A stretch of 64,000 bases of DNA from Bilabrum cf. latius. Its lineage: Eukaryota. A program made the position numbers and the translations under genes. Below, piece by piece: positions 32,624 to 56,024 of this stretch (the stretch's first letter is position 1; each line of letters begins with the position of its first letter). The DNA lies in assembly GCA_965178125.1 (NCBI GenBank), contig OZ237756.1, positions 620,001-684,000 on the forward strand, read 5' to 3'. A model generated the notes under the pieces. It searched no databases, was not told where the DNA came from, and worked only from the letters and a program-made list of their open reading frames with translations.

Positions 32624-32624
32624 A

Positions 32625-32897: not shown

Positions 32898-32933
32898 TTT
32901 TGTATTCTATAGTATTATACTATAGAGTTAGAT

Positions 32934-34139: not shown

Positions 34140-34164
34140 TTAGTATAGGCTTGTATTAAAAAAC

Positions 34165-34782
34165 TCATAGACGACTTCCAAGACCGAAGGTTTTCCGGAC
34201 GAATTCCTCCAGTTGCTAAAAGGATGAATAGACACAGTACTAACTCTAATGTAATCCAGCGATTAAATTCGTTCTTGAGCGTTCCACAGACAATAAGTCC
34301 CCCGATTTTTTCCCTTCACGGATTTCCTCAAAAAGACTGTGAGAAGGCACACACACAAAAATTGAACTTTCCTTAAATAAATCTTTCGCTAATTCCAACG
34401 AACCAACCATAACAATTAAACGTCTGGATTTCTTCGTGAGCCAATCCGCTTTAATTTTTTCATACACTAATCTTGATTGGGAATAATAAAAGAGGCGGTG
34501 GGTACTTTCATCACCGTCAACCAACATTTTCTCCATCTTTTGCTTTTCCTGTCCTGAAATTTGAGCATTTACACACTCGTCTAAATCAATAATTAGCGTA
34601 TCCTTATCCACCGCTTCTAGGGAACGACATAACGTAGTTTTACCGCTTCCTTTTGGAACAACCACGCACGATTTCTGTTTCTAAGTTCCGTCTTTCGTCC
34701 ACCAAGAATACAGACACTTGCTTCCTGTATAAGCTAAAGGGGCTAAAGTCCCAGCAACCATTACAGCAGTTGATACTGACAT
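34165..34782 (-). CDS. P-loop (kinase-like) protein with hydrophobic N-terminus, 205 aa
   Basis: VVVPKGSGKTTL..IIDLDE; same-length homolog at 61572-62189. Confidence 0.75.
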
Positions 34783-34837
34783 TGTTTTGATATACTATAT
34801 ACCAAGACAAATATTTATTGGTTTACCCTTTTCATAT

Positions 34838-36604
34838 TCACTGCTACAACATTGCGAGTAGTTGGTTACGAGATAAAGATTTCCCACCTGTTAAGCCCGA
34901 GCCTAACTTGGCACCTGTTAAGCCCTTGCCTTTCTTGGTAGTTTTTCGGGGTTTCCTTTGGCGACCCATTCCAGCCATTTCACCCACCATTTTAGCGGTG
35001 TCAAATACCTACTTACCATCCTTTAATACTTTTTTGAGATTGCCTTTCTTTACCCAATCAGCGGTTTTGTGTGCGAACTTTTTTAAGGCGTGTCTAATCT
35101 TTTTACCAAGACCCCTACCGTGTAGTCCGCTTAATTGACTTTCATATACTACGGGTAATTTAGAGGCGGAAAGAACATCTGCCCGTGAGATGACACCCTG
35201 CTAATACTCGAACTTAGACCCATCAATCAAATTTAATACTCCTTCGTATAATCCAATCACAACACACTACACATTATCGTAGCCCACATCATCATTATTC
35301 TTCACTCGTAGGGTTATAGACAGTTGGTTAGACCCGTTGCTACCATTTGTCTAATCCACATCTAAGCTTAAGTCCTTGGCGGGGTCAATACATAACAGAC
35401 CACCTGATAGCACCCTATCCCCGAATTTACGCATAGCCCATTCATTATATTGCTATTCAAGTCCGTTGCTTCTGGATAAGTCCCATAACTGCTGTGGCGA
35501 TGCGTCGGCGAGTAATCCACTATGGTTATTCATCTCTATACTAATTCCATCAATTGCCATGAATGTGTTTCCCTAATCTACTGAAAGGGTTGTAGGTGAG
35601 CGACGGGCAAACACAAATAAACGACTTGGAACTGAATTACTAAGCTTAATATTGTTATTGTAAAGAGTTGCTGTAGTACCTGCGGCAATTGTTGGACTAT
35701 GACTTTGGGTATACGAAGTCATCTCAAAAATATCATACGAGACCTATTTAGGAAGCACAAATCCTGTTTTAGGTGTAATCTATTCAAGGTATAGGACTGG
35801 TTCTTGGACATCTACCGACTAAATGGTAGCAGTTAAGCCCTATTGTGGAATACGAGACCACACGGTTCTACTCAGTTGAGACCAATTAATATTTAAGGAG
35901 AGTGTTTGAATTCCGTATATAGCCGTTTGTTCCTATTTACTTTCGTAGTGGAAAGGTGGACATAATACCGCCTCAGTGCATTCAAAAACAAGAACACGAT
36001 TTTGAGTTTGACCTGCGGGTACATCAGTATTATCCATTTGATACAAATTGTAAAATCCACTTCCTCGGGCTGGTTGGTCCTAAAGCACGTCCTCATACGA
36101 AGCAAGAGCGTTATTCGTAGACTAACTCATCATCGCGTATGAAGGCACATTATCGCGTCTATACACACTATCAAGGCAATTCACACGGTGGACATCATCA
36201 TCTAGTAAATGGGACAGAGCGTCCATTAGTTCGCCGTTGTTCTGGGTATAGCGAAGGTTATTAATGCCAACTGTCTATGTTGCGATGGAGCGATTAAGTG
36301 GATAGGAGCGTGGAGCATCGTAATCTGGTCTAAAGGGTGCTAGACCACCTGCGGTTTGATTATTCACGGAAAAGGTGATAGAAAATCGGCACGAGACATA
36401 GGCACGACGGCACAAACCTACACCTGAAGGCATACTAATATTCCAGTTGACCCCGCTGTTGTAGTTTCCGGCAGACCCGGAGGGGTTATATTTACGGAAA
36501 GTCCGGTTCTCATAACCTTCTTGAACTTCATACGGCTTCGGTTGTACATCTAGTGTTGCGGGTGATACTTTGACTGGCTGAAGGGCAAAGGTATTCAATG
36601 ACAT
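34838..36604 (-). CDS. Virophage major capsid protein (double jelly-roll), 588 aa
   Basis: YPLNR, NALASYED..ARG, EAVLCPPF, GIQTL, MNNHSGLLADASPQQLWDLSRSNG, GVISRADVLSA, basic Gly-rich tail; about 15 in-frame TAG, no internal TAA/TGA. Confidence 0.92.
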
Positions 36605-36709
36605 TTTTGTTTTCCTTGTATATTATATACAACGAATAAAATTCTATCACTCAGTTCTTTAGAAAAGAACGCAAACTCGTTTCTTCATAAAAGTAATACA
36701 AAACTAATT

Positions 36710-37819
36710 TCACTTCCGTTTCTAAATTAAAAACTTCACACTCACACTTCCGTGGCGTAAATAAAGAGGTCTTAGATTTGAATAATTATCTTTCCAATAA
36801 AGATTAAACTAAATCCTATCTACTGAATGTGTATCTAAAAAATCAATTTCGTGGAGAATATGGGGCTAGTATTGAAGAACCTGCTAATTCACTGTTTCTG
36901 TATCATCTAATACACAGTCCATATCCACTAATAAACTCTCGGTCCCTGAACCTGAATTCTAATCTGTATTTGTGGATTGTCCATAGGCGGATTTCTAGGA
37001 TATTGCCTCACTCCTCACTGGAAGACTTGAAGATGTGAAAACTATTCCGCGAAAAATCTAAAACTACACTAAACTCCCTCGTTCCTAGGTCATCATTAAT
37101 CTGTAGTCTCCCGTTGGGTTTCCCTCGAAGTATGCCTAAGGTTCATATTTTCCAACAGAAGAGCCATCATCGAATAAAACATTGGTTCCTAGGGTTTTGA
37201 ATAGAATACTGGCGTATAAGTCGTCATCTTGGATATCCATTCGTTCCATAGGAAAACCCGTCATCAGTTCGTTAAGGGCTTCATTCAACACTAATTTAAA
37301 TTTTTGTCCTGAGTTTTCCTCGTCGTAATCGGGATTTGCTACTAAACTGAACTTTCCATCTTTAAAGAGTAAAACCGGAACTGATGTAATATCCGCTGAT
37401 AAAGCATTCTATATGGTTTCGTTGAATAAATCAACAAAATGCTACACGGAATACATATAATAATAAGGAACAAACTACATAGGATTGGAAAAAGATGGTT
37501 GGTTTTCCCCTGTTAACTAGGGTCTCCATATAATACTTTCCGTCCATAATTGTACTCCACTTTCATCTGTAATGCTTATTCTATACACCGTTTGATTAGG
37601 ATTTGAAGATGGATTTTTCACTTTATCGGTTTCTATGTGTGGAACCCATAAAGGTATTGAATTGGTGCTTATGGAAAACCTGAACACTGACATCGTATAA
37701 TCACCAACATCCTTATCTAATAATGGCTACTTGCGGGTTTCGCTATAGGTCGCTGGTTGGAAAGTATCTTCGTTATTTCGTATGTTTGCGGTAATGTAAA
37801 ATCGGTCTGGAGAACTCAT
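36710..37819 (-). CDS. Virophage minor capsid (penton) protein, 369 aa
   Basis: YSETRK-PLL..DYTMSVFRFSI..IPLWVP; LYWKD..SVKFL C-terminus; directly upstream of MCP. Confidence 0.87.
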
Positions 37820-37875
37820 TTTACTATAGAGGCTTATAATTATGGGGTGGGTTTGATTACTTTTCTAAAGTATAA

Positions 37876-38367
37876 TTAAGATGGTGTAATAAGTGAACCT
37901 GACACTAAGGATTTCCAACTAGATGTAGAAGAACTGCCAATCGCCACATAGACATCGTTGTCGCTTCCATTATACACTAAAGCCCCCTTGAACTTTCGCT
38001 CTGGTGACGTATTAATTGGGACAGAAGCATCAGCAAGCGTTGCTCCAGCAACCTCACTCAGCCCAACGACACCCTCTTGAGAAGTCTTGAATGAACCAAC
38101 TAGTGAAATATCGCATCTTTCTCCTTCTTCGCTCATACTGAACTGACAACCAGCAGACGCTCCGTTTTTCCCAAATCGTAAAACTGTGTCTCCCCACGCC
38201 ATATATGGTTCTCCGTCCGTGAACTCAATACTTGGATTGCCTATGACTGCTCCCGTAGAGTTAGTAATTGCGGACACTTTAATTGCGTCGCTACTCACAA
38301 CATTACACGTAATAGTTTGAGACATAAGGTCTAGACTGTTCTTAGATAGAAGATTTGAAACTGACAT
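37876..38367 (-). CDS. Putative fibre/structural protein, 163 aa
   Basis: Shares LRFG.N.ASAG...S..E.G..CD with 45991-46512. Confidence 0.6.
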   Translation of the reverse strand: MSVSNLLSKNSLDLMSQTITCNVVSSDAIKVSAITNSTGAVIGNPSIEFTDGEPYMAWGDTVLRFGKNGASAGCQFSMSEEGERCDISLVGSFKTSQEGVVGLSEVAGATLADASVPINTSPERKFKGALVYNGSDNDVYVAIGSSSTSSWKSLVSGSLITPS

Positions 38368-38407
38368 TTTATAGTATATCCACAGAAATAATTTTTATCA
38401 GGTTGCG

Positions 38408-39481
38408 TCAATCTTTTCCTAAAAGATGTAATAGTTCCATAGCAACCTAATGATGAATATCTTTAGTGGTTCCTTTTACTTTCTTGGCTACATTCATTGC
38501 TGTATCATAGATAATCCTTTTTCCACCTCGTAATCCTTTTCCGGTCTTCTTCTTCTTTTTCCCTCTTGGTTTTCCTATCGGTATTCTACTTTCTTTTACA
38601 GACATAGAACCAGGTTGTGCTATTCCGTGCGGTGGAGAAAATCCGGTAAAACGTTCTACAGGTTTGCTTGCCCGTTTTCCCAAGTCCATTTTCGGCCTTT
38701 CCGTTGGACCTCCCTCGGGTCTGTATCGTTTTCCCTCTCTTTTTTTAAACATCGGCGAACCTTCCCAAAACCCGGGTGGTCTTGCGGGACTTTTCCAAGC
38801 AACTGAGGTGACTTTTTCTGTTGTTGTGTCGTCGTCGTCAATAGCTTGCCCCCTTTCTTCTCCTTGTATGCTCCTTAATAAATCATCCACTTCGCTAGTT
38901 TTACTTTTGGATGACCCACTCTGTTCTGGAAAATGTTGAAGTAAAGATTGTTGTCCATCAGTTCTCCGTGAGAACTATTGTCCCTATTCTTCTTCCAATA
39001 TCCTACTTTGTTGCTATGAAAGTGGTTGTCCTTTGGAAATCCTTTCGCGTGCTCGTCGTAAAATTTGACCTCTCTATCTCCTGTTTAAACTCTCTGTAGA
39101 ATTTTCTAATTCTCCAAAATCTTCTTGAAATGTGTTAGTTGTTGGTGTTCTCATAGGTGTTTGCTGGAAATCAATTCCCAACATTCCCTACGGTATTCTT
39201 TTTCCGGATGCGTCCTAAATAACTTTTCCTAATTCTAAGAGTTGTTTTCTATCCTCAGCTGGAACTCTCTGCAGTCCTTCGTATCCTTTCCTTTGAAACC
39301 TCTCTATGTTAACGTATTGACGGGCGAGTTGTTGCTTCATTTGTGGAGACATATTGATATTACCAACAAAATCCTTTAACGCTTTCACGGCTGGCTACAC
39401 GTTCTTTCCCTCAATAATACCTTTCATTATACCAGATATTGATTTAGATATGATTTCCTCGTTGCTTTGGTCTGCCTATTT
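38408..39481 (-). pseudogene. Large low-complexity (core-like) protein of element 2, 5' truncated at the element 3 junction
   Basis: Frame open (TAG=Gln) up to the C7 run at 39482 with no promoter or start there; weak similarity to the N-terminal part of 59448-61526. Confidence 0.6.
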
Positions 39482-40018
39482 CCCCCCCGCTACGGTAATA
39501 AATAAATTTATTCCCTTCGGTTAAGGAAACAAGTTTCAATAGTTCCAGTCCATCAGAGCTAAAGCTCTTCAGTCCGTTCCACTCCTTTTGGAGCTAGTCG
39601 CTCCAAAAGTCAAGGTGGTCCTCTTCATACTGCTACTTCATATAACTGCTTTATCCTTCTAATTATATAAAATCAATTATATATAAAACTCTATACGATG
39701 ACCATATCCATAAATTGCGTATTAGTATATGTAAGTTCTAATCAAAACGTGGATGTAGCCCTCTTGTGAAGGTGTTATGGGACTCTAGCCATTTTCTAGC
39801 CAAAAGTTCCATCACTTTATGGGACTCCATTATTCAACCTTCTAAACTACCTTCATTATACCCCCTTATCCTCGCTTATACCTTCACAAATGGAACACAC
39901 GCGCTACAGCAACTTGCTACACTCGTCATCGCAATACCACAAGCGCCACAGTTCAATACACCCCGGAACGATGACGCTGTAGGCCAGCTGATCACTTCAC
40001 CAGCCTAAAACAATAGAT

Positions 40019-40711
40019 ATGGACCGCAAGATTGAGGTAAGAATCCACAGGATAGATAATCAACATATGGAAATTGCTTTGCTGACCGTATCTGTATCTA
40101 TCGCACCGGTTTTGCTCGCCAACGCAGCTCTTCAAGCCCGACCAACGCAAGAAAACGGGAACGGAAGCGCTACTCACCTTCCAGGACACCGTACAAACCG
40201 AGAAGAACCCCAAGAAGCTTTTGAAAGCGCATTCAAGGCTACTAGGGGACATGCACCTCGTTGAGCAAACCGGGAAGTCGCTGGAGAAGGCAATTCGGGA
40301 GGCGGTCGGAGCATTGGAACCGACAGGCGTCAACTCAAAGGCTCTACTCGCTGTTATCGCTTCAATATTCCCCAAGGGGAGTCTTGACGATACCGATGCT
40401 GACTTTGACCGGATTAATGGCGTGCTGAAGATTCTACATCACGGCAGAGATTACGCGGAGACGAGGCAGACACAGGCGTTCTTGGCACAGAAAATGGCTA
40501 TCCTCAAGCCATTTCTTCCAGCATATGACATCCCATCGCTCGTTGGTGATGTTTTGGAGAAGAACCAGAAGAGGAAGCGCCGCCAAGACTTCAACAAGTA
40601 GCTTCTTCTGGAATCTGGCATCGCCGCACCAGCCAAGCGGTTTCGCGGCAATGAGAATCTCATCCAGGACTATCCCCGGACGGCGGGTTCTTAGCCCAAG
40701 ATGGAGAAGTA
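40019..40711 (+). CDS. Intron-containing hypothetical protein with NLS-like motifs; intron 40037-40127
   Basis: MDRKIE then GTAAGA...GCTGACC...CGCAG joins in frame to ORF 40221-40601; two TAG read through; ends TAA. Confidence 0.62.
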
Positions 40712-40895
40712 AGAAGGTTGAACAACCTTTTTTATTATAAATTGTCGTGTTTGTTATTGGTAGGGACACGGCTATATTGGAGTGGCCACGCTGTCGTGTG
40801 TAGCAGGGTACGAACCGTGCTTCCAGCATTGACACGGGTGGAATCCCGCATTGAAGAGCATTTCAATGTTTCATTTGTGGTCTCAGTCAATCCAA

Positions 40896-41363
40896 TCAAT
40901 CCACACGCATCACCACGTATCCATTTTGCTCGCTCGTGCTCCCGTCGTAGCTGTTTAGAAAATGTCCCAGCCCGTCCTCATCTTTACAGGCCTGAATGAG
41001 GTCGTCCCAGCGCCCCTAAGCCACTATAAATGACTTAAGAAGGGCGCTTAAAGCCTCGCTGTGGTTCGCGTCAGCGGTAGCGGTGCTTATGATATCGGCA
41101 TCGCAAGGCAGGAAGCGCGAGAGGAACGCAGGAACGAAGGAAGCAAGCGTCTCTGTAGCGTGGTCGTCCAAACGTTTGTCTGCTTCTTCTTCGGTGATAA
41201 TCTCATAGGTCTGGATTTCCTCGCCTAGCTTCACCGTGGCAGTCTCGCCGTCAAAAGATTGAAGAACCCTGTCCCACTCCTCGCCCACTGCTCCAATGTC
41301 TTCAATACCAGCAATAAGCGCCTTCATTACTTCATCATTAACATCTGTAGAAACCCCGGCCAT
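40896..41363 (-). CDS. Acidic hypothetical protein, 155 aa
   Basis: MAGVSTD...; TAG 41016 read through gives DEDGLGHFLNSYDG; ends TGA. Confidence 0.7.
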
Positions 41364-41675
41364 TGTTTTATGTGTTTTATGTGTGGTCCAGATAAATTTT
41401 GGCGTAGCACAGGTTCCGAAGATGAAGATGAGAAGGTGGTAGACGATAGCCGATTCCAGTGGTAGCAGTGAGAAGTTCCAGCACGAGGAAGTGATGAAAA
41501 TGTAGGGCAGGAGGGTATAAACTGACGGATGGAACCGCAAAGGAAGGAGAATTGGATTGAATAATTGAAGCCAGACCCATAACCCTAGCCTATAGGCTAG
41601 GGATAACCCCCACATAACCCCCCCACCTCTAAGCGTTTTTTTAAAACTCAAAAATTATAACTTAGTATTATAGAT

Positions 41676-42446
41676 ATGAACTTTAATAATTATGTCATTG
41701 AAAATCCCGTCCTAATGAAGCAGATTTATAAGGCTACAGACCATATTACAGATAGTACGCAAAAAATTTTAGAGACCATTACTACGTATGTAGATTTAGG
41801 TGGAAGGTTTTCCACGTCTAAATTAATTAATAAAAATATAGTTAGTGATATTAAAGAGAAAAAAGCCGTCAAAAAACCCAAGAAAGAAGAGAAACAGAAG
41901 ATACAACACGATAATAACGACCAGCTTGAAATTAACCAAACATACATTCTAGATAAATTTAATGACTATAAACCACAGAATAATAAAATTTATAATGATG
42001 TAGATGATTTACAACCGCCAGAATTAATTAGATAGACCGCAATAGATGAAAAATTTACCGGTATGGAGCCTGACAGTGAAAGTGAAATAAACAGCGTTAG
42101 TACCGAACAAGACTAGATAGAAGCAGAAACTGATGATGAAATGATACCTGAGGAAGAGAAAAAAATAATAGGTGATTTAATTAAATTAGAGAATCAGGAT
42201 TATAGGTATAAAGTGTCCGTAAATGGAAATGATGTATTTTTTGGTGAAATTAATTTACCCGATGTAGAGGCTCTTAAGAAATAGTTTAGCCCTCGTAAAT
42301 TACAAATTATGATTTGTAAAATTAAAAGAAATTTTAATATTAATAATAGCGATGATATAAACAGCCCTGAGTTTTGGAATAGCCGTGTATATTTGACCCT
42401 TGATGTGAAGGCCGAACACGAAAAACTACAAGATATCTATAATTAA
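41676..42446 (+). CDS. Hypothetical protein, 256 aa; C-terminus resembles that of 46566-47273
   Basis: VFFG...DINSPEFWNS versus VHFG...DYKSPAFWSR; ends TAA. Confidence 0.65.
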
Positions 42447-42809
42447 AAGCCCCTACAACTTAATAAACGGGCTAGAATTTAATAAAATATTTTAATATAA
42501 CCGCTATATTAAAATCTATACGATGGCTATATCCACAAATTGCGTATAATTATATAGTATTTCTAGCAAAACGTGGATGTAGGGCCTCTTGTGAAGGTGG
42601 TATGGGACCTTTAGATAATTTTTAAAAATAGTTCCATCACTTTAGAAGGTGTTAAAATACACCATTCATATCACAATCTATTTTTTAGGGCTAAATGGCA
42701 AAAATCACCTTTTACCTTCATTAATTATTATAGCCCCTTTAAGCCCTCTATAATTAAATATGGCGTTTAAAATAGTTTAAAAATATATTTCTAATAATAT
42801 ATATAGAAA

Positions 42810-45587
42810 ATGAATAATAAAAACCTCGTTAGTTTCCCCATCAAGCACAATCAAAAAATACCTGATGTTAAAAGCTGGCGATATCTCACCAAACCCGAGC
42901 CTAAACGATTTAATAATCAGAATATGGCTATTATCACCGGAGAAATTAATAATATAACCGTGTTTGATATTGATTCATATAAATGGAGCGATAAGAAGGA
43001 GCATTTATTCATCAAGAAATTTTCAGATGACTTTGTGAAGCGGTTCAACACATTCACGGTTAAAACAGCGGGTGGAGGGTATCATCTATATTTTAAATAT
43101 GATTAGAATATATTAACTACCACCAATAGAGATATTGACGTTGATATTAGGAATGATGGGGCTTATGTAGTGGCACCACCAAGTGGCATAAATGGGTCAA
43201 AATACGAAGTTATTAATAATGTAGAAATAAAAAAATGTCCTAAGGAGCTTTATAAATTTTATGAAAAGTATATTATTAAATCCTCTAAGAAATCCAACGT
43301 AAAAGGGGCGAGTAAAAGGATATCAAAAATTGATAATCAAGATGTGAATAACTGTATGATGAAATTCATTTTAAATGGTAAAGACTGGTCAATTATATTA
43401 AATAGACTAGATAAGAAATATTTAAATAATTATAGTGATTGGTATAAAGCAACCCTAGCGAGTAAATATTTAGGATTTAAGAAGGAATGGTAGGAGTGGA
43501 GCAAGAAGGGCAATAAATACGACTACCACAAAAATAACAAGGTGTGGAACTCTATCCATTATTTTGATAAGTTAAAAACCTTTAATTTAGTTAATTCAAT
43601 AATTTAGAATGATAAAAGTTTAAAGGCATTTGTGAAGGATAAGTATATTTCAAAGTGTTATTATCGTCCTTATGACGAGAATATTAACGGGTATACAGAA
43701 ATTAATAAACCTAAATTAGATGATATAGAGAAGCCCGAACGATTTTTTAAATATGAATATAATTATGTGGTAAAAAGTGATACAGGAACAGGTAAAACAA
43801 CAGCATTTAAGAAATACATTAAACAGGTTCAAACGCCGTTCTTATCCATTGTATCCCGTGTATGTTTAGGCACAGAGCAATACGAGAGCTTTTTAAATGA
43901 AGATATTAAATGTGAGTTCTACCAGAATAAAACTTTTGATTTTGGATAGTCTCTTATTATTACGCCGGAAAGTATCCCCCAAATTGTGAATTATGATTTT
44001 TCTAAATACATCGTATTCTTGGATGAATTCAATAGCATTATAGAGCATATATTAAGTTCTACTACGATGAATAATAATAGGGTTCTTGTATTATTTATTA
44101 TTTTAAAAATGATAAGGACGTGTAAATAGTTTATTGCTGTAGATGCTGACATATCCCAGATAGCGATGAAATTTTTAAAATGTGCTGGAGTAGAATTTAG
44201 CTTCATTAAGAATAAATATAAGCATTTTAAGGACGTAAAAGTATATTTTGAAAAAGACCAATAGAAATTTTACGATAAATTAAAAAGTGAAGATAAATTT
44301 ATACTGGCGTGTGATAGCAAGAAGAACGCAGATACATTTTATAAAATGTTATGTAAAGATGGTATAGAGGACGTTAAATTAATTACTAGTGATTTATTAC
44401 CTGATGAAGATGTGAGCTTAGATAAATATGATAAAATTATATTTAGTCCTAAAGTCATTTACGGATTAGATAGTGTAATGGAACGCCCAGTGTATGGATT
44501 ATATAAAGGAAAAACGATTCTACCGCCGTAGATGATGTAGCAACTGGCAAGATGTAGAAATCCCGAATATATGAATATATATTTTGAAGATGTAAAATCC
44601 ATTTATCCAAGATATGAGAATTTAAAGGAGGTATAGACGACCTTAAATATGGAAATTAACGCATAGACAGATTTATATACTAAATTAGAAAAATACGAAA
44701 AAAGGATAATGTAGGAGAATGATATTGACATTGATATTTTTGAGGGAGAAGATGATGAAGAGATAGCCCATAAAGCAATGATAGAGGCATCATACAAGGT
44801 TTATTTACCACTCAAGAAATTATATAATTTCAAATGTGATACATACGAAACAAATAAATATATTCATTTATAGCTTATTCTTAAAAACAGGGGTGCCGAT
44901 GTATAGGTGGATAAGGAATTACCACAACGAATGAATAAATAGCAGATGAAAGAGGCGACAATGGAGATACTACAAGAAAAGATTGATTCATTTGATGTAG
45001 AGAACGACCATATAAAAAGAAGAATTGAAATTTTAGGGCTACCAGAGACAGCCATAACGGAGGATATTAAAATGTTATTAATTGATAATTACAAATTAAT
45101 GAATTATTTTAATTATGCTAATTTCAAGAGAAAAGATAAATATAAACTAATGACAGAATTAAAGGATAGAAAGGATTTTAAGGATGAGAAAGCAAAAAGT
45201 ACAAAGAATAAAATAATCATATTATAGGAGATGTTATAGACGCTTAAATTGAATAAATTTGATTTAAGTTATACACGTAAAAATGAGAAATCCATTAAAT
45301 ATATAGAAATGGGTAAAAGATATGTAGAAGTAAGCGGGGCGAGATTATAGAAGCCAATAGAAACCGATAGTGAATTACACGGGGCAATCGTAAAATTATA
45401 TAAGTAGTTATTTGGAAATATTAAAACCTCTTGGAGTATGGGAAATAAAAAGGATAAAAAGGATAGAGAATTAAGAATTAAATTCACCAAGGAGAAAGAA
45501 TTATTTGATGAAGTTTATAAATATTAGTATCCCGAAATGAAGGACGTATACAAGGAATCCAACGAACGATTAGATTAGAATATTTAA
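42810..45587 (+). CDS. Prim-Pol primase fused to SF2 (UL9-like) helicase, 925 aa
   Basis: NMAIITG..VFDID, GGYHLYF, VKSDTGTGKTT, VFLDEF, QLARCR; colinear with 242-3040; ends TAA. Confidence 0.9.
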
Positions 45588-45645
45588 TACCTTTTTTATG
45601 TGTTTAAAATAACTTAAACATTATATATTTATATAATATATAGTG

Positions 45646-45948
45646 ATGAGCGATATTTAGAGTTCAAGCAATACATAGGAACAACCAAAAATTAATTATA
45701 TGTAGGAATATTACAAAACAAACAAAGACAAATGGAATAAAAAATATTTAGCTAGAGGAAATGAAAAAGTTAAATGCGATGTGTGTGATTGTTATTATAG
45801 AAGGAAGGACAGAACGAGACACGAACGAACGAAGAAACACCAAAAAAATCTCAAAGAACCAAAAAAGGATATACTAGAGGAATATATCAAGAAACTTAAT
45901 CAAACCCTGCTTAATAGCGGGATTAAACCACCGGAGATATCAATTTAA
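45646..45948 (+). CDS. C2H2-type Zn-finger protein, 100 aa
   Basis: EYYKTNK..KVKCDVCDC...RHERTKKH. Confidence 0.75.
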
Positions 45949-45990
45949 ATCTATCTATTTATTTATTTTTTTTATAAATAAAAAGATTTT

Positions 45991-46512
45991 TCAACCTTTA
46001 ATAACCATCCAATTAGCCGACCAATCATTAGAGGAATTACCACCCGTTAAATGAATCGTAAATCCATCGGTTCCTGCTACTACGTGGGAAAATTCAACCG
46101 GCTCACTGGCGGGGGTGATTGTAGTAATAAAAACCAAATCACTAGAAGTCATACCCGGAACACTAGCAAATTCAGTAGCACCTCCACCACTCCAATTTAC
46201 CCTTCCTTTATGCGCTACGGTGTTATTTGCTACTACTTCACCTTTTACGGTTAAATCACATTCGTGACCGTCTTCATCAAAACTCATAACTAAACCAGCA
46301 GATGCGGTATTGGCACCGAATCGTAAAGCTTGACCCGAAGTGATGTAAGAAATACCCTTACTGTCAAGATGTAATCCTGCGTTGCTAACAACTACATCAC
46401 TACTATTCACAACAGCATTTACATATAGACCACTACTATCTAATCTACCAGTTGCGACATTCTTACATTGAATAGATATATCATTAGGTTGCGATAATCT
46501 TGCTAAGCTCAT
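45991..46512 (-). CDS. Putative fibre/structural protein, 173 aa
   Basis: Homolog of 37876-38367 with a different C-terminal domain. Confidence 0.6.
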   Translation of the reverse strand: MSLARLSQPNDISIQCKNVATGRLDSSGLYVNAVVNSSDVVVSNAGLHLDSKGISYITSGQALRFGANTASAGLVMSFDEDGHECDLTVKGEVVANNTVAHKGRVNWSGGGATEFASVPGMTSSDLVFITTITPASEPVEFSHVVAGTDGFTIHLTGGNSSNDWSANWMVIKG

Positions 46513-46565
46513 TTTTTGTATATATAAATAAGAGAAAAACTAAAACTTATATCAAACCTATAATA

Positions 46566-47273
46566 TTAAACTTTCATTAATTTTTTAGCTCTATCTACGG
46601 CGTCCATAAAGCTATCTTTTAATGTTGGTTCATTCCATAATACAAACCTAGACCAAAAAGCGGGGGATTTATAGTCTTTAAAGTCTTCATTTATTGAATG
46701 TCTTTTAATATAATTTTTCTTTTTACGGTTTGCTTCCTTCTCTCCATCTTTATTATAATATTGTATAAAGTCCATATAAGGAGTACCATCATTCTTAATT
46801 CCACCAAAATGAACAGTAAACAGAATATTATTACCTTGAACTACTTTAATCATATATTTTTTATTTGATTTAGTTGATTTATATAAATTAAAAACTGGTT
46901 TAGGTCTAAATGATTTCACGTGTCCGTTATTAAATTTTTCCTTCATTGCTTCCTCTATTTCTTCCGTGTCTAATTCTCCAAAGGTTAAAGGGGTCTCTTT
47001 ATTTATTCTTTTAGTGGGTCTATATATATCTCCTTTTTCCTAATATCCCTTTTCTCCCTTCTAATTCTTCCAATCCTCTAATTTCCACCTTCTTAAATTT
47101 TTCTATGCTTCATTTAATTTAATTTTATCATATGTCCCCCCTAGTTTTTTATATGATTTAAAGTATGCTAATGAACGATAAGCTGAAGGCTTTTTATACG
47201 TTCTATTTACTTTCTCAACTGCCTGACGCCATAATTTAGGACTATTAATATAACTAGGTATATTATCATTCAT
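46566..47273 (-). CDS. Two-domain hypothetical protein of a type seen in large DNA viruses, 235 aa
   Basis: PSAYRS..YKKLGGTY..LRRW..E.W..YRPTKRI..ETPLT plus KKYM..VHFG..YIKRH..SPAFWSRFVLW. Confidence 0.7.
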
Positions 47274-47281
47274 CTATATAA

Positions 47282-47440
47282 TTAATAAAATGATAATTTT
47301 TTAATAGCGTGAGCCGTTTTCTTTCTATATTCTTCATAGAGTCTTTTATTATTTGGATTCTTCATTAATTTATTTTTTACCTTCTTTAATGCCTTCTTAA
47401 TAGCATACTAAACAAAGATATTACTAATAATATTAATCAT
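47282..47440 (-). CDS. Small basic protein, 52 aa
   Basis: ATG after TATATAAT; open with one TAG; ends TAA. Confidence 0.35.
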
Positions 47441-47467
47441 ATATTATATAATTAATAAATATTTAAT

Positions 47468-48967
47468 TCAAAGCATTAAACCGCCTTTTTTTCCTTTCCT
47501 TGATATAATTTCTTCTTTTTCATTTACGACCATTAAATCATTCTATCCGTGGATAATTAATTTCTATCCTTCTTCATTTATCTATTCTTTTTTATATTCA
47601 CCTAATTCTTTACCTACTTTAAAATTTAATCTTTTGTTAAATGTGATACTGTCGGTGTGAATTCGTATAATATGTTTAGCGTTGTTCTTATTCACTTTCT
47701 TCATCAATCGTTGTCTTCCATATGCCAGAATAAAAGGTTTCAATTTTCCCCAGCTATATTTAAAGGGTACTTTATGTTTTAAATGATAAATAAATTCTCC
47801 GTCATTATCCATTTCTACACGGTCAATATCAAATTTATCTATATTTATTTTTTTATCGTCTTTTGATGTAATTGTCTTTTTAGAGGAACTACATAATTTA
47901 CCCCATAATGAATTTAATATTTCTTTTGCTAGATATGATTTGCTTTTTAATTTGTAGAACATTGAGACATAGGATTTAAAAAGTGTTTCACTTTTGATAA
48001 ATTTATCATAGGTCATAAAATTAAATTCGTCGCTTGACATCTCTATCTCACAACCATATTTAACAAACATATTCATATCTGTAAAGACATAATAAGTAAA
48101 TTCATTTTCAAATACCTTCATCATTTGAAAGATATTCGGGTCGCATTTTCCACGGCTTACCTTACATTTATAAATCCCTATTTCGTTTTTATTATTAATC
48201 TATTTATTATCAATTGTTTTATAAATAGGATTTCCATATGGTAGTAGTGAATTAGATGACATAATGGCGGGGTAATGACTATTTATATCGTAGGTGATAA
48301 ACTCCTCATATTGTCCCTTCTTGTGATATTGAATCCCGCCACGCGTTGAACCTTCAATAAATACCGCTTCCTCTGGGGTTATATCTGGTGGGCTATCTAT
48401 CATCATATTAAACATTGTAAAGAAATGAAGGGCTGTTTGTCTGATTCCATATTTCATTACATCTAATGATGGGTTCTCGTCGTGTAATTCATCACTTGCT
48501 ATACTCAGCCTTAAGCTCCATTCTTTGATATCTTCATCCTCTGGGCATTCGTGAATGGTGTAATGAAGATAATATTTCTTTGAATGATAATCGGTTAGGC
48601 TCTCAACTCTATATTTATCTTTTTCAATTATTTCGGCTTTATCGGTTAATTTAACAACCATAGATTTATGGCACCGCACAAATAAAGGTTTCATCCTCTA
48701 GACGGCTTTAAATGAACCATCTTTATATTCTAAACAAACCCTTTTAAAACTCTTTTTTTTCCTACTTAGATAATAGACCTTTATATCGTCTTTCTCTCTA
48801 ATCTCTATATCCATTTTTAAACCTGAAACAAGTTTATAAAGGTTCTTTGTAGTTATGGGCTTACCGTTAAATACCTTTTCTAGATACTTCACGGATTGAA
48901 TGGGGTTATCATACTTTTTACCAAAGCATATATTTAATTGATTTAACACATTTTCGTAATTTATCAT
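47468..48967 (-). CDS. Short protein-primed PolB, 499 aa
   Basis: TYDINSHYPA, AKEILNSLWG, RIHTDS; three ORFs joined by TAG; ends TGA. Confidence 0.9.
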
Positions 48968-49045
48968 TTCCTATAGTATATTATATTTAATATATTTTTA
49001 AGCCATTTTAAACACATATTATAAAGTTTAAATTATAAAATGTAA

Positions 49046-49387
49046 TTATTGTTTCGGAGCAGTGAGGATTAATATAAATCTCTTCACTTGCTCATCACTT
49101 AAGAAGGTATAGCGAGAAGAAGGACTGAATAACATTACATCATCCTTTAATTTAAATGGTGAACCAGTTCGCCAGCCTATGGGGTAGAGAGAACTAACAT
49201 ACGCATCATAATTTTTTAAATGGGGCTTTTGTTTTAATAACCTCTAGATATATTTTTTTAATAAAGTCTTCATTTCTAAATCATTATATCCATCATCTGG
49301 ACGAGGAGGGAACACGAAATTATATACGGGCTTATTGTTTTTAACAAGTTGAGTTCTAACAATTTGAATATCACTTAATTTAACCAT
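49046..49387 (-). CDS. Stand-alone homolog of the pPolB N-terminal (terminal-protein-like) domain, 113 aa
   Basis: RTQLVKNNKPVYNFVF..GWRT..FILIL matches RTKLRLNGKPIWSMRF..GWRT..FELLL at the N-terminus of element 2 pPolB. Confidence 0.72.
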
Positions 49388-49479
49388 TTTTATATATATA
49401 CTATAGATATTTTATTTTTAAGCCAAATACACGCGTTTAAAATGACTTAAAGATTTTATTTTATTATAATATATATAGA

Positions 49480-50025
49480 ATGTCAAAATTTGAGAGTTAT
49501 GAACCAAGCGAATTAATGGAACTTTTAGAAGAGGGAGCCGTAAAGAAAGCCAAGAAATATATTAATCAATTCTTCTTTAAAACTTTTAAAGGGATATTTT
49601 TTAATAATACCGTAGAAGATAAATTTGAACTAGTGGATGAAGACGAATTAAATGGTTTGTATCTAACCCCTGATATGAAAACCGACAGTGCCAAAAATCC
49701 ATTTGTTCCATACATTTATATGTTTTCTAGTGAGCCCCCGATTTATTATACAGGAAATTTTGAGAGTAAAGACCCCATAATGACAATTAAAAAGAAGGAC
49801 AAACCCATCAAATATATTAATTTGTCATACGGTCAATTTATACCCGAGGAAGTAGAGGAACCAGAAGAAGAAGAAGAACCAATAAGACCCAAGAAAAAGA
49901 CTAAGAAGAGGAACAAGAAGAAACAAAAACGTGATAATAATAGAAATGTTGAGAAACCAGATGATGAAGATGATGATGAAGAAGCCTTTAGAGAGCAACT
50001 TCAAGAAGCATTAAAAGATTTCTAA
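49480..50025 (+). CDS. Homolog of the N-terminal domain of the element 2 helicase, lacking the ATPase domain, 181 aa
   Basis: YEPSELMELLEEG...YINQFFFKT..GIFF versus YSSKSLMDLCNAG...YLKQYFYRT..GVYF; ends TAA. Confidence 0.68.
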   Translation: MSKFESYEPSELMELLEEGAVKKAKKYINQFFFKTFKGIFFNNTVEDKFELVDEDELNGLYLTPDMKTDSAKNPFVPYIYMFSSEPPIYYTGNFESKDPIMTIKKKDKPIKYINLSYGQFIPEEVEEPEEEEEPIRPKKKTKKRNKKKQKRDNNRNVEKPDDEDDDEEAFREQLQEALKDF

Positions 50026-50347
50026 ATAATTTAATATTTATACTAATATTAAATATGATATCTTTATTAATAGTTGAACACCTTGACCATCTAATAAAAG
50101 GGCTAGAATATTAAAATATATATGGTTATCTCTATAATAAAATCCATACGATGGCTATATCCACAAATTGCGTATTAGTATATGTATTATTTAGCAAAAC
50201 GTGGATGGATTAGTTTTATGAAGATGATTTGATTGATAACGTATTTCTAGCCCAAAAGTTCCTTCACTTTAGAAGGTTGTAATATAGCCCCTTCTGACTC
50301 CCATCATCAATATGTTAAATATTAATTTTATCATTAATATCTAATTA

Positions 50348-50899
50348 TTATTTACCAATATGACATTTATAACAAATTGAATATTTCATATCTTTAATTC
50401 TAGACACTCCGCATTTTTTACACGCCTTTTTTCCATATTTTGTAATCGTATAACAAGACTTACAGGTTGTCCTCCAATCACCTCTAGCCATTTTACAAAG
50501 ACACACATCACATCTTTTTTCATTCCTCTTTTTTTCCTCTAACTTTTTCTATTTCTTTTCTAACTCAATATGTCTTATTCCTTCACAGTGCTTATTATAT
50601 CGGTCTCTTGCGACATCCTTTTTACATATTCCACACCACTAATATAAACATTTTTTACGAATTTGATTTTCTTTATCCTTTATCATCTACTTTATACAAC
50701 TAGAACCCACTTTAAAAACATATCCACTAGGGGTATGCTCTATTTCGTGCTCGGTTCGTATCTCGTGCCCACAAATACAATTACCCAATTTATCACCTTG
50801 AATAACGGTTGAGCCAATATGAATTAATTTCTTCTAAATGTCCACCCATTTTATATTACCGGTATGTTCCTATATTTGTTCAATACACTTTTTACACAT
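50348..50899 (-). CDS. Cys-rich multi Zn-finger protein, 183 aa
   Basis: CICGHEI...VGSSCI and several CxxC pairs; open only with TAG=Gln. Confidence 0.7.
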
Positions 50900-50905
50900 T
50901 CTCTA

Positions 50906-51720
50906 TATAATATCTATATAATATAATCTTTAAGTCATTTTAAACGCGTTATATTATAAAAAAGGGGCTTAAAAATAGACACTATAGAAATAGATGATTA
51001 TATTAATTAATATTATTAAAATATTAATTAATTAGACCGGTTAAATAGTTCTTTGGAAAGTATGAACCTACTTTGAAAAGTATGAACCAACTTCGGAAAG
51101 TATGAACCTACTTTGAAAAGTGTGAACCAACTTCGGAAAGTATGAACCTACTTTGGAAAGTATCATTCACAGGTCATATATTTATTTAATATGTATAAAT
51201 AAATAATAAAATGATTATCTAGAGACATCTATTAAATATTTGTTGAAATACGTGCCCACTATTTTATTATACTACTTCAAATGATACAGATACAGCGTCT
51301 TAAATTTATTATTTGTTTGTTTTAGACTGTCAAAACAACCATTTATATAACTTAGATATCTACTGTTTTCATCTGTGTCTTTATCCAAAACACAATCAAG
51401 TAATCCCATAGTTGTTTTCACATTTTTATAAGCGTTTAGATAATTATCATAAAAGTCTAATAGGTCTTCTAGTTCAGTTATATGATAATCTTTAGATTCT
51501 TTCTTAGTGGAGAAAATAGTGCTTTCCGTTTTCTCACGCTTTATAAAAGCCTCAGTCATTTTTTCTTCTTTTTTAAAGGCAATTTTGATTTCTTTTGATA
51601 CGAGTCTATAAAAATTGTTCATTGTATCATAATAATTATCCATTGTGTGTATAATATCTATATAATATAATCTTTAAGTCATTTTAAACGCGTTATATTA
51701 TAAAAAAGGGGCTTAAAAAT
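50906..51720. promoter_or_regulatory. Duplicated 71-bp bidirectional promoter-like block (50906-50976, 51650-51720)
   Basis: Identical copies with AAAATGACTTAAA on the minus strand and GGCTTAAAA on the plus strand. Confidence 0.65.
51215..51643 (-). CDS. Hypothetical protein, 142 aa
   Basis: ORF 51272-51643 extended through TAG to TAA. Confidence 0.6.
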
Positions 51721-51747
51721 TAATTACTATACATATTATATATAAAT

Positions 51748-52554
51748 ATGGACAAATAGAGATTTTCATTGACCTTTGGCGATGCTGGAGAGAATCATAT
51801 AGGTATGGAAATGTTAGGTGAAAGGCTCAAGGAGGGAGAAGGATTTAAAAATGAAGATTTGAAGGGGGTGATGGAGGTATGCGAGGAGAAAGGGTTTAAA
51901 TGTGAAATGATAAATTTAGATGAAGATGTAGATGAAGATTTAGGGGCTAGGGTATTAATAGTAAGGGAATTTTATAAAAAGAAGAAAATTAAAAAAGTCT
52001 TTGACGAGTTGAAGGGGTTAGAGTGGGACAAAAAGTATTTTGATAGAAGGCGGGGGAGGGTGTTAAATAAAAATGCCCGTCATAATTTAGTATTTATGAG
52101 TGATAATGAATAGAAAGAAGATTATGAAAAGGGATAGGGACGAGTATATGATGTGAATAAATTGAAAATGATGAAGGGAGTAAAGAAAAGGGTAGATAAA
52201 TATATAAAAATGGGAATGGATAGGGTAAAAAGTAAATCCAAAAGAGTAGATTACGTTATAGAGGGTAATAATTATTATGATTTGTCCCGCACAATGATAG
52301 GATTTCACGGTGATAGTGAAAGAAGGCGTGTAATATGTCTATCAGTCGGTGGTTATGATGAGCCTATGGCGTGGTGGTGGTTCAAAAATAGCAAGCCGTT
52401 ATGTGAGCCCCGTATTATTAAATTAAATAGTGGAGATTTATATATGATGAGTGAAAAGGCGGTTGGTAGTGATTGGAAGAAGAAGAAAGTGTCCACATTA
52501 AGACACAGTTTTGGGGAAAAAGGCATATAGGCGGGATTAAAAAAATATAAGTGA
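51748..52554 (+). CDS. 2OG-Fe(II) dioxygenase (AlkB-like fold), 268 aa
   Basis: TFGDAGENHIGM, NKNARHNL, EGNNYY, IGFHGDSER (HxD), LNSGDLYMMS, TLRH; ends TGA. Confidence 0.82.
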
Positions 52555-52771
52555 TTATAATAATTAATATTATTAAAATATTAGTTAATTAGACCGGTTA
52601 AATAGTTCTTTGGAAAGTATGAACCTACTTCTGAAAGTATGAACCAACTTTGAAAAGTATGAACCAACTTTGAAAAGTGTGAAACAACTTCGGAAAGTAT
52701 GAACCAACTTCGGAAAGTATCATTTACAGGTCATATATTTATTTAATATGTATAAATAAATAATAAAATGA

Positions 52772-53062
52772 TTATCTTGCCTTATGTAATTGAATAGGTT
52801 TCTTTTCTAATAGACAAACAGCCAAATAATGAAGTACAATGTCATCATCTCTATACTTATTCCTCGTCTATATAATACATTTATAGGTTGAATATTTGAG
52901 ATATAATAGCTTCTCTCTACTGTCCTTTTTTAATTGATTGGTGATTTCTATTACCTAATCACTGTTTGTAAAAATTACGGTCAAAACTCCATCAATTTCT
53001 GTCTGGATATAGACATCGTGTGTAGGCGGTAGATTCTCAATAATTTTATTTAACTTTTCCAT
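52772..53062 (-). CDS. Hypothetical protein, 96 aa
   Basis: AAAATGACTTAAA motif upstream; open with TAG=Gln; ends TAA. Confidence 0.5.
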
Positions 53063-53109
53063 TTGATATATATTAGTTAGTTAATATATATTTAAGTCAT
53101 TTTAAACGT

Positions 53110-54999
53110 TTAAGATGTGCTTAAAAGGGCCTCGAGATCGTCTGTTTTCATTGCCGCACCTCCACGCATCGTAAGTTTTCCGCCAAGTTTATTCAATTCT
53201 CCTCCACTATTTCCATATCCATAATGTGCCGCCGCTTTGCCAATAGCGCTATTGTCTCCTGTTAGACTTTTGAGTGGTCCTATATTCCTAATGGTTTTCG
53301 CTAGGTTTTTAGCCTAATCACTTTTTGCCCAATCTTTAACCTGATTCCATCCGTGTTTAAAGGCTCGTCCAATCTTAGACCAGAAACGACCTTTTCCACC
53401 CATAACATTAGCATAATTATCTAAATCCTCAAATACAGGCTAGAAACCTTTAGAACCACTTTCAGCATCACCACGTTTAGCAAGTTCAGAAAGCACTTTA
53501 GAAGGCTCAATAAGGGCGCCAGCCTCAGTATAGACACCGTTATCATTCACAAGAACATTATCATAAAACATCCATACTTTTACCTCGTATTTATCCTCAT
53601 ACGCACCATCCGCATATTTATTATAAGGGTTGAAGCACTAAAGATTAACTTTAAGATTAAATCCAGTATTTACATTAGATTGAACACCAGCAAGTGTAGC
53701 AACATCTGAAGGTTTTAAAATCATATAGCAACCAGTACCGCGGTTTCCATCACTTCCATCAATTGATGAACCATAAAAGGATGAAGGAGGAAGAGCATAT
53801 CCGTTCTTTCTACTAATTCTATATAATTCGTGTGGATTATCTACAGCCCCTAATTCCTCAGCGCTTCCATTGAGTGAGAAACCTATTCTTCTAATTGGTA
53901 AAGTTCTATTAGCCCAGTTAGGGTTATCATCACAACCAACAAGGCGGGCACATACCATAATAGCACTAGGGATACCATTCTCACGGGATAATTGATAATC
54001 AAAAGAAGTTAAAGAATTTTCAGTTGCGGATTTAGGTACAGGGACAGGCGCCTAAGACTAAAATTTAATTGTAGGCATATTATACATACAACGAGTCGGG
54101 GGGGCGTATCCACTCTAAAATTCAACTTCATCAACAAGAAGGGTCGTATTTGTTTCTCCTATAATTGACTAACCCGTTATTTTATTAATATCTCCGTTAT
54201 CTTTTGTAAAACTAGCCTTACACAGTCTTTGAATAGCATTTACGTGATAATCTAAATCAACTTGAAGGCTTCTTACACCGGTAAAATATTTAGCATTTAC
54301 ATCAACATCTGCTCCTTTTAGTGGTATAGCTTCTTGAAAATCAATAGTCCAATCAATTTGGTCTCTATTACCCGCAACGAAATCAGCATTTACAGTCGTA
54401 AAAGCATTCCCATATGCTCCACGATAACTAAAGCTATCACCGGCACTATATCCAACATCCTAACCCCAAGCTAAAGGATTTTTAAGGGTATCACTTACTT
54501 CACGATAATCACCAACAGTGTCAGGGCGTCCAACGGGTGAGATTGTGGATAAGGTTTCTTCACTGTTCATAACTTCAGTAGGTTCAGCCCATTCATAAAC
54601 TTTTACTGTAAAAGGCTATCCATTAATTGTTAAAACACCACCTTGAAGCATTTTAAAGGTAGGTAATGAATTAGTTCCAAACCTAGATTTAAGATAAGAT
54701 TGAGCGGTAATAGCATCACCTCCCGCAGTTTGAGCTGGTACTGCTTGCTCTAGTTGTAGCCTAACTGTCATACGATGACGAAGACGAATAAACCTTGATA
54801 CGGTTTTACTAGTAGGATTAACGGGGAAAGAAAGGGGAAGAAGAGAATTAGATTGATTAGATGATGGTCTAATTTCTCGGCGGGTATATTTTTGAACACC
54901 TAGTTCTGTTCCTAAACTAGCATCTTCAGGGGTTATCATTTGAAGGCTTTTAGGAGCCTTAATGCTTACTGGTAAATTCTGAACCATTTGTTGAGCCAT
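53110..54999 (-). CDS. Virophage major capsid protein, 629 aa
   Basis: NPHELYRISRKNG aligns with SPQQLWDLSRSNG of element 2; GG-rich basic C-terminal tail; single frame. Confidence 0.87.
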
Positions 55000-55070: not shown

Positions 55071-56024
55071 TTAAAAATCTAAACTTAAATTATCGGTTTG
55101 TTTTTTAAATACTTGTTTAATGTGAGCTTCACCCCCGTTAAAATTCATTACGGGATACTTTTCATTTTGTTTATCAACCCAGTAGAACGCCATTGACACG
55201 CTCTTAAAGCTTCTATCCTTCATCATTGAATACCAGCGGTAAGGATTAGAAACATATAATATATTTTCTATTGGTGAGCTGTCATTAGGATTATACGGGT
55301 AGCTGGTTAATATAGGGGATTTATTGACGGCTATAGAGCCACCAGTAGATGATTTAGTGGTCACCAATTCTTTATTAACTGGAATATCACTTTCTACGAT
55401 AATAGATTTAACAGGGCACCAAGAATTTAAATTCGTCTATCTAGCCATAAAAACATAATCACCACTAGCAGGGGAATTATTATATGAAAGTTTAGCAAAT
55501 AAATCACTCGGTGTGGTTGTTATTCCTTCATATTCAAATTTATCAAATAAAGCAAAAGCTTCAAAATTAACAAATAAATAATAATTATCTCTAAAATCTT
55601 CAGTTGTTGATAAACTCCATTTATTATTTTCAAATTTAAAGACTGGTTTATCACCACTTGGAAGGCTTACCAAATCACAAATTCGGCTTAACTCTTCATT
55701 AAATTCATTTACAATATCCTAATATGAATAATAAAATTTAGCTTTTTTACCTAGAACTATATAATCGCCTGCTCTGGCTCCTGATGTTTTATTCTCAAGA
55801 GTAAATTTTAAATAGGTTTTACCGCTGTCATCCTAATATTCAGGTTTAAACACCGGTAGCATAAATTTATTTAAATCCATCTCTTCAACAGCCGTTAAAT
55901 AATTTTCACTTTGTTTTAATATTAAGCCTTCACGGGTTTCATTCACTACCGCCTATCTCGTCTAATTGTGGGGGACAGATGAACTAACTAAATTCAATCT
56001 TACAAATTCATCGCTATAACTCAT
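55071..56024 (-). CDS. Virophage penton protein, 317 aa
   Basis: NETREGLIL..NYLTAV..MLPVFKP; PYRWYSM..FYWVDK..HIKQVFKK. Confidence 0.85.

Follow-up and report, generated by a model that had tools for sequence, protein, structure and literature searches.

Endogenous virophages of the Mavirus type are known in protists such as Cafeteria (Fischer and Hackl). The DNA described here is a stretch of 64,000 nucleotides from Bilabrum cf. latius (assembly GCA_965178125.1, contig OZ237756.1, positions 620,001 to 684,000 of the forward strand; hereafter the window, numbered from its first letter). It is nuclear DNA of a GC-rich eukaryote and carries three integrated elements (E1, E2 and E3) that are virophage-like in their predicted gene content; the Mavirus-like integrating type was tested for E2 and E3. 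The likeness to Mavirus-type elements lies in size (12–22 kb), in a low GC content against a GC-rich host background, and in genes for an rve integrase, pPolB, a Sputnik-type major capsid protein (MCP) and a penton protein. The differences are a variant genetic code, a primase-polymerase (PrimPol) with a UL9-like superfamily 2 (SF2) helicase in E1 and E3, and the lack of detectable terminal inverted repeats at the approximate limits of E2. Judged from the DNA itself, the host translation system very probably reads UAG as Gln and stops at UAA and UGA (the pattern of NCBI table 15), and the virophage-like elements appear to share that code.

Nuclear codes with UAG as Gln and UAA as the main stop have been reported for Iotanema spirale (PMC5304391), and for Hartmannula sinica and Trochilia petrani (PMC11687900). 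As in the window, only UAG is reassigned in these species, to Gln, and UAA remains a terminator. The reassignment of UAG alone is rare in eukaryotes, and these three are the UAG=Gln species named in the accessible portions of the two papers. They differ from the present case in their stop usage, UAA being the primary or preferred stop, whereas all six host open reading frames (ORFs) examined here end in TGA (none in TAG), as do 13 of the 29 ORFs of the elements. The host DNA here is also GC-rich with putative short GT..AG introns, and viruses are not mentioned for the three species in the same portions of those papers. The code-15 crAss-like, Lak and other gut phages have TAG as Gln in viral genes, which are broken by standard gene callers, and the same is found here; as far as the available text of the sources goes, such phages infect standard-code hosts, whereas in the window host genes themselves carry in-frame TAG (PMC9523058, 10.1101/2021.08.26.457843). 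Among eukaryotic DNA viruses, the GVMAGs V2 catalogue describes giant-virus metagenome-assembled genomes (MAGs) that annotate better under alternative codes, and suggests variant-code hosts for them; it states that every confirmed isolate of a giant virus is from a standard-code host, and the word virophage does not occur in that paper (PMC13524828). The present elements resemble those MAGs in having genes that open only under stop-codon reassignment, and differ in being physically joined to host DNA in which the same codon is sense, a junction that makes the host question for recoded eukaryotic viruses testable.

No report of recoded virophages was found in literature searches, most subscription journals being outside their scope. 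The only variant code mentioned in a paper on Phaeocystales is a plastid UGA=Trp code, an Antarctic virus paper tested recoding for Crassvirales only, and Table S2 (Codetta) of a paper on polinton-like viruses of cryptophytes gives 'The Standard Code' for seven of 11 hosts, with a stop reassigned to an amino acid in none of the 11 code strings.

The 29 viral ORFs of the window contain 173 in-frame TAG codons and no TAA or TGA, and they terminate with TAA (16) or TGA (13), never with TAG. TAG is a sense codon in these ORFs, and TAA and TGA are used only as terminators. It makes up 173 of the 500 Gln-class codons (CAA, CAG and TAG), and the recoding extends over replication, integration and capsid genes alike. 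With TAG read as sense, the fraction of sequence lying in stop-to-stop ORFs of 150 aa or more is 0.89 in E2 and 0.81 in E3, compared with 0.17 and 0.22 under the standard code; the control reassignments gave 0.38 (E2) and 0.53 (E3) for TAA as sense, and 0.39 and 0.26 for TGA. In practice, standard gene callers shatter the elements (long ORFs take up 17–22% of bases rather than 81–89%), while recoding-aware callers silently write Q, so that database matches become circular evidence. In the AT-rich E3 (31% GC), TAG occurs 93 times and CAG 17 times, an excess that fits AT-biased drift among synonymous codons.

The same counts bear on whether the elements are decaying viral fossils in which TAG marks nonsense mutations. 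Their integration would fit decay, as would a 187-bp repeat, also found in contigs of other runs, that is inserted in E2 at 28858–29044. Decay would, however, give TAA and TGA too, above all at 30% GC, and neither occurs once in the 29 ORFs against 173 TAG; the ORFs are full-length relative to their homologues, and TAG stands at conserved Gln sites. Decay is scarcely credible as the source of the pattern.

Termination is itself distinctive. Among standard-code relatives, 567 ORFs of at least 200 aa end in TAA (457), TAG (59) or TGA (51), and the TGA share in the window elements (13/29 versus 51/567) is significantly higher (odds ratio (OR) 8.2, p = 1.3e-6). E3 taken alone, at 31% GC, ends six of 19 ORFs in TGA (p = 0.0065). 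The frequent use of TGA may be owed to the release factor of a host in which UAG is reassigned. As an observation in its own right, TGA terminators are about five times commoner in the recoded elements than in the 79 standard-code relatives.

The identity of the amino acid was examined with the PrimPol-helicases of E1 and E3. Because the protein collection translates TAG as Q, a helicase profile was made at the DNA level from 73 standard-code IMG/VR relatives. They come from 79 loci returned by a scan, all of which use the standard code on inspection and have TAG only at ORF ends. Across the 26 TAG columns of E1 and E3 together, Gln is the best-scoring residue (15.06 nats), ahead of Lys (4.94), Arg (4.26) and Glu (4.19). 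Gln log-odds average 0.579 over TAG columns and 0.472 over CAA/CAG columns, as against -0.360 in the rest; TAG columns differ from the remainder (p = 1.3e-7) and not from CAA/CAG columns. Individual TAG columns reach Q emissions of 0.72, 0.50 and 0.49. In calibration, the test recovered the true residue in 99–100% of resamples for all but one of 17 residue types. A protein-level profile of homologues found with the E3 helicase (120 listed of 313) gave a similar ranking over 25 TAG columns (Q 15.17, K 1.98 nats). Six loci (L011, L017, L036, L048, L050 and L059) that had been flagged as possibly recoded turned out to have the standard code, with TAG either terminating ORFs or falling in overlapping frames that are spurious, and they were kept out of the helicase reference set.

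The integrase offers a second conserved site. The glutamine of its Q-x-D motif is encoded by TAG in E3 and by CAA in E2, and is Q in all four standard-code IMG/VR integrases compared (L056, L049, L061 and L012). The E3 codon is number 54 (63222–63224, minus strand), within IQ*ADLLYLP (asterisks denote in-frame TAG), two residues before the first catalytic Asp. In alignments to PDB structures, which do not extend to helicase motif VI or to the integrase Q-x-D site, the TAG codons covered face Arg in UL9 and Ser in the PFV integrase, at positions that are not conserved.

Environmental relatives of E2 provide a further comparison. A metagenome scan gave ten loci (L001–L010), among which L001 shares synteny with E2 over the genes for integrase, helicase, pPolB, penton and MCP and is itself TAG-recoded. 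The relatives L001–L008 are recoded too, with 154 in-frame TAG in 14,549 codons and with TAA (15) or TGA (14) at the ends of their 29 complete ORFs (TAA/TGA-bounded, at least 200 aa). Alignment of five genes of E2 and L001 (2439 aligned codons, 59.4% amino-acid identity) places E2 TAG opposite CAA 11 times, CAG seven times and TAG five times, i.e., 23 of 49 are opposite Gln-class codons; the corresponding figures are 29/79 for CAA/CAG and 70/2311 for other codons (TAG versus other, OR 28, p = 8e-21). The reverse direction agrees, with 10 of 21 L001 TAG codons opposite CAA/CAG/TAG of E2. In 52 columns that are Gln-class in both, TAG is shared in five, where 4.4 are expected, indicating that the choice between TAG and CAA/CAG has been randomised between the two lineages. 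An alignment of E2-type helicases contains two columns with TAG opposite CAA/CAG in seven of seven relatives, one column with TAG in all eight sequences, and one reciprocal column, with CAA in the window and TAG in seven relatives.

A preliminary description of this DNA had pointed to reciprocal exchanges of TAG and CAA between paralogous genes of the elements, and each exchange is borne out, for the helicases in a pairwise alignment in which TAG was masked as X. The E3 helicase motif PP*MM*QLARCR (44523–44558, plus strand) comprises codons 572–583 of the ORF at 42810–45587 (plus strand), of which codons 574–578 (44529–44543) read TAG ATG ATG TAG CAA, with TAG at 44529–44531 and 44538–44540 and CAA at 44541–44543. 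Its counterpart in E1, PPQMVQ*LNRCR, comprises codons 574–585 (1286–1321, minus strand), with TAG at codon 580 (1301–1303). TAG574 and TAG577 of E3 are opposite CAA of E1, and TAG580 of E1 is opposite CAA of E3. In the 73-relative profile, the Q emission is 0.72 at E3 codon 577 and 0.50 at codon 578, and both columns are at least 90% Q in alignment A3. The motif TCK*F has TAG in both helicases, at codon 435 of E1 and codon 440 of E3. In the integrases, the E3 TAG54 of Q*AD is opposite CAA in the VQMD of E2, and TAG148 (62940–62942, minus strand) in S*MALVE is opposite CAA in the RQQALVE of E2; TAG148 aligns with Ser in the PFV integrase, a position that is not conserved.

The codon-aware test proposed with those examples gave a modest enrichment. 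Over seven paralogue pairs within the window, nine of 88 TAG codons (10.2%) lie opposite CAA/CAG/TAG, compared with 17/123 CAA/CAG codons (13.8%) and 185/5289 other codons (3.5%); by Fisher's test TAG differs from other codons (OR 3.1, p = 0.004) and not from CAA/CAG (p = 0.53). The Gln-class partners of TAG come from the helicase (7/27), integrase (1/8) and MCP (1/23) pairs, with none in the penton (0/16), pPolB (0/8) or small ATPase-like (0/6) pairs. The broader claim, that TAG behaves as a synonymous Gln codon across diverged viruses, holds mainly through relatives outside the window, i.e., the helicase profile for E1 and E3 and the comparison of E2 with L001, which cover two unrelated types of element. 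The further suggestion of long co-evolution with this code finds indirect support in the share of TAG among Gln-class codons (173 of 500), in the saturated exchange of TAG with CAA/CAG and in the recoded environmental relatives, which suggest that the elements have lived long under a TAG=Gln code, though none of this yields a time scale.

Several results weigh against Gln. Within the window, four residues stand opposite TAG more often (N 11, E 10, S 9, K 8) than Gln does (Q 7), in pairs that are 24–36% identical. Among the E2-type relatives TAG also exchanges with TGG (one column), GAG, AAG and others, and one TAG of the E1 helicase falls in an I/L column. Ten TAG columns of the E2 MCP, compared with about 145 distant homologues (~28% identity), are flat (0.72 nats for E, 0.64 for H, 0.48 for T and 0.12 for Q), and three of these TAG codons occupy hydrophobic or aromatic columns (L/I, V/I and Y/F). 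The three TAG columns of a host OGFOD1-like gene, discussed below, are variable (K 1.46, E 1.01, Q 0.80). Lastly, JGI loci of the E2-helicase clusters have four to five in-frame TAG where the protein collection writes Q, so the Q of database matches is not fully independent. Three collection proteins (P0271, P0276 and P0277), 92–99% identical to the E2 helicase and with Q at 10 or 11 of 11 TAG sites, were set aside because the collection writes TAG as Q.

These points could be taken to mean that TAG specifies another residue (Glu, Lys, Leu or Tyr), or that an ambiguous reading is tolerated at permissive sites. The flat MCP profile, with E and H nominally above Q, and the surplus of N, E, S and K opposite TAG within the window would fit this, and UAG=Leu and other UAG reassignments do exist in eukaryotes, as described in the accessible parts of PMC5304391 and PMC11687900. 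In the calibrated helicase test, on the other hand, Gln is about 10 nats ahead of the next residue, TAG occupies the columns with Q emissions of up to 0.72 and the integrase Q-x-D glutamine, and the commonest non-Gln partner of E2 TAG in L001, Lys, accounts for 5/49 against 23/49 Gln-class. A different or ambiguous residue is accordingly rated very improbable. The flat MCP profile is read as divergence of distant homologues, since seven of 14 MCP TAG codons are opposite Gln-class codons in the closer L001. Scans of IMG/VR with the single E2 or E3 MCP found no relative.

Whether the code belongs to the host or to the viruses depends on the GC-rich DNA between the elements, which contains eukaryotic cellular genes (OGFOD1/Tpa1-like, UBC6-like E2 enzyme, thymidine-kinase-like, TPM/RING and kinase-ARM ORFs; all names but the first are readings of the translated sequence). 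The OGFOD1/Tpa1-like prolyl hydroxylase gene (9855–12695, plus strand, ending in TGA; 33 homologues retrieved by search) has an exon that aligns without gaps to residues 79–275 of human OGFOD1 (4nhx; E = 1.2e-43). Three in-frame TAG codons (9936–9938, 9990–9992 and 10194–10196) lie inside this conserved domain, and more are present in low-complexity parts of the gene. In the UBC6-like ORF (5984–7462, minus strand, ending in TGA), the single in-frame TAG (codon 348) must be read through to reach the hydrophobic C-terminus. The host reads TAG as sense, the clear evidence coming from one gene. The residue at host TAG codons is inferred to be Gln too, since host ribosomes also translate the integrated viruses.

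Code-15 phages bring their own suppressor tRNA, whereas a search of the 64-kb window and of L001–L007 turned up no tRNA gene. This bears on the alternative that recoding is viral, with a suppressor tRNA supplied during infection by the virophage or a helper giant virus and a standard code in the host. Recoded phages of standard-code hosts are documented (10.1101/2021.08.26.457843 and PMC9523058, in the parts available), and host TAG use is sparse, at about seven in-frame TAG among the ~3,600 codons of six ORFs. Against it stand the missing tRNA genes, the three TAG codons within an ungapped conserved domain of the OGFOD1-like exon, the read-through needed in the UBC6-like ORF, and the absence of TAG from the ends of the six host ORFs. 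The host exons with in-frame TAG and the lack of a tRNA gene in the window point to a code of the host, and a purely viral recoding appears improbable.

Editing of U to C, turning TAG into CAG in transcripts under a standard code, would yield an identical Gln signal in every alignment. It would have to act at no fewer than 173 viral sites and at host sites as well, sparing every TAA, and the free-living metagenomic relatives have the same pattern. To our knowledge, no nuclear or viral system performs site-specific U-to-C editing on such a scale, and this explanation deserves almost no weight.

Under a host code with UAG as Gln, the host apparatus would translate all three elements, with a host tRNA-Gln(CUA) decoding UAG and a release factor blind to that codon. 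A change of CAG to TAG would then be a synonymous C-to-T change, TAG could have drifted up to about one third of Gln codons in the AT-rich elements, and TAG and CAA/CAG would exchange freely between paralogues and relatives, conserved functional glutamines included. A wider proposal, advanced only tentatively and with the balance somewhat against it, is that the window comes from the host of a code-isolated virus community, with UAG alone reassigned to Gln and with TGA-biased termination, in which virophages and, by implication, helper giant viruses share the code. If so, the code would be a host-range barrier in both directions: TAG-rich virophages would not be expressible in standard-code cells, and incoming standard-code relatives would suffer read-through in about 10% of their genes. 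The TAG=Gln giant-virus MAGs in catalogues would then have hosts of this kind. A barrier of this sort would matter for understanding what keeps virophage defence systems bound to a host lineage.

The GC profile divides the window into four blocks, E1 (1 to ~4.8 kb, GC ~0.30), host DNA (~6 to 26 kb, ~0.60), E2 (26 to 40 kb, 0.37–0.41) and E3 (42 to 64 kb, ~0.30). A PrimPol-helicase is common to E1 and E3, and the Sputnik-type capsid, rve-chromo integrase and pPolB to E2 and E3. E1 runs off the left end of the window, and its sole visible gene is the PrimPol-helicase (242–3040, minus strand; 932 aa, 11 in-frame TAG, ending in TAA; Pfam Prim-Pol 8.9e-14), which aligns with its E3 paralogue over 821 columns at 35.7% identity. 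Flanking this gene are two 58-nt sequences (117–174 and 4700–4757) that are 71% mutually complementary and each internally palindromic (CGCCCAGAATTGCG...CGCAATTTCGGGCG), possibly representing element termini or hairpin sites.

E2 (38% GC; 69 TAG, 101 CAA and 34 CAG) extends approximately from 26880 to 39481, limits set by the ends of flank-matching contigs from two other runs, X5 and X6 (at 26879, and at 39482 or 39642). On the plus strand it encodes an integrase with rve and chromodomains (27670–28818; Pfam rve 6.8e-10, Chromo 5.8e-6), a DUF5906 helicase (29063–30724; 2.8e-15) and pPolB (30782–32623; DNA_pol_B_2 2.3e-6). The minus strand carries an ORF of unknown function (32934–34139), a P-loop protein (34165–34887), the Sputnik-type MCP (34838–36604; MCP_V20_C 1.6e-27, Sputnik_MCP_1st 8.1e-25), the penton (36710–37918; V18-19 3.9e-9), a 163-aa ORF (37876–38367) and a second ORF of unknown function (38408–39427). 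A search for MCP homologues found 2273.

E3 (93 TAG, 150 CAA and 17 CAG) runs from 41608 to or past the window end at 64000. Its PrimPol and SF2 helicase gene (42810–45587, plus strand) encodes 925 aa with 20 in-frame TAG and ends in TAA (Pfam Prim-Pol 7.2e-16, PriCT_2 3.2e-6); its helicase portion is similar to a herpesvirus origin-binding protein (9hgj; UL9-like, profile E = 4.7e-6). The other named genes are on the minus strand. A pPolB-like gene (47468–48967) is recognised only by similarity to the E2-type pPolB (28% identity, E ~1e-29). The MCP (53110–54999) matches MCP_V20_C at 0.0036, below the curated cut-off, and is followed by the penton (55071–56024; V18-19 5.3e-7). The protease-like (56361–56936) and ATPase-like (56945–58045) genes, candidates for the cysteine maturation protease and the FtsK-type packaging ATPase of virophages, have no Pfam match, and their BLAST matches are only to virophage-contig ORFs, from three and four standard-code loci, respectively, at no more than 33–37% identity. 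The integrase (62226–63383) matches rve at 5.8e-11. About 12 further ORFs are present, including one of 692 aa (59448–61526) without a Pfam match, in which low-complexity repeats accompany a very high content of Gln and Pro (63 CAA, 12 TAG). Terminal inverted repeats were not found for E3 either; like E1, it runs off the window.

An 18-mer, CGTTTAAAATGACTTAAA, occurs seven times (up to three mismatches) in 42764–53108, where 0.1 copies are expected, and all copies are in E3. Five lie 30–47 nt upstream of start codons, those of the helicase (42810), pPolB (48967, minus strand) and the ORFs at 49480, 50899 (minus) and 51643 (minus), and it is not present before the E3 capsid genes. From its placement, it looks like a promoter motif common to the E3 replication module; as a hint of dependence on a co-infecting giant virus, such promoter-like repeats are only suggestive. 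A second E3 repeat, intergenic and 45–130 nt long, is present in three copies (42480–42604, 50074–50207 and 56205–56364) that are 81–96% alike and in inverted orientations. One contig of run X4 passes through this repeat, running from 42581 back to 39777.

The X4 contigs, from another sample, cover all 30 bins of 25301–45300. Some of their pieces are about 4% off the window (41/1108 and 37/913 letters differ), indicating that further E2-like sequence exists in that run. Contigs of runs X5–X7 over the same interval give no cover on E2 or E3 and no empty-site bridge, which does not imply absence from those organisms. The 187-bp piece at 28858–29044, just upstream of the E2 helicase start, is lacking in one E2-like X4 contig (joint 28857 to 29045) and is present in contigs of runs X5–X7, which otherwise match host flanks only. 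It resembles a small, dispersed repeat of the host that entered this copy of E2.

In the host DNA, a kinase domain is split between two frames, with the DFG part in the ORF at 15020–15958 and the APE part in that at 15886–18363. A 110-nt GT..AG interval (15851–15960, plus strand), read from the sequence, joins the two in frame and is inferred to be an intron. Between E2 and E3, one run-X5 contig skips 91 nt with GT..AG ends (40034–40126); the skip is intron-like, its shorter side fitting 28 letters only and the kind of run being uncertain. The GC-rich host DNA adjoining E2 contains a tandem satellite (20450–24200) of about 33 copies of a 115-bp unit, 86–98% alike and with a strong AT skew, followed by a tandem repeat of about 15 copies of a 39-bp unit (24400–25200).

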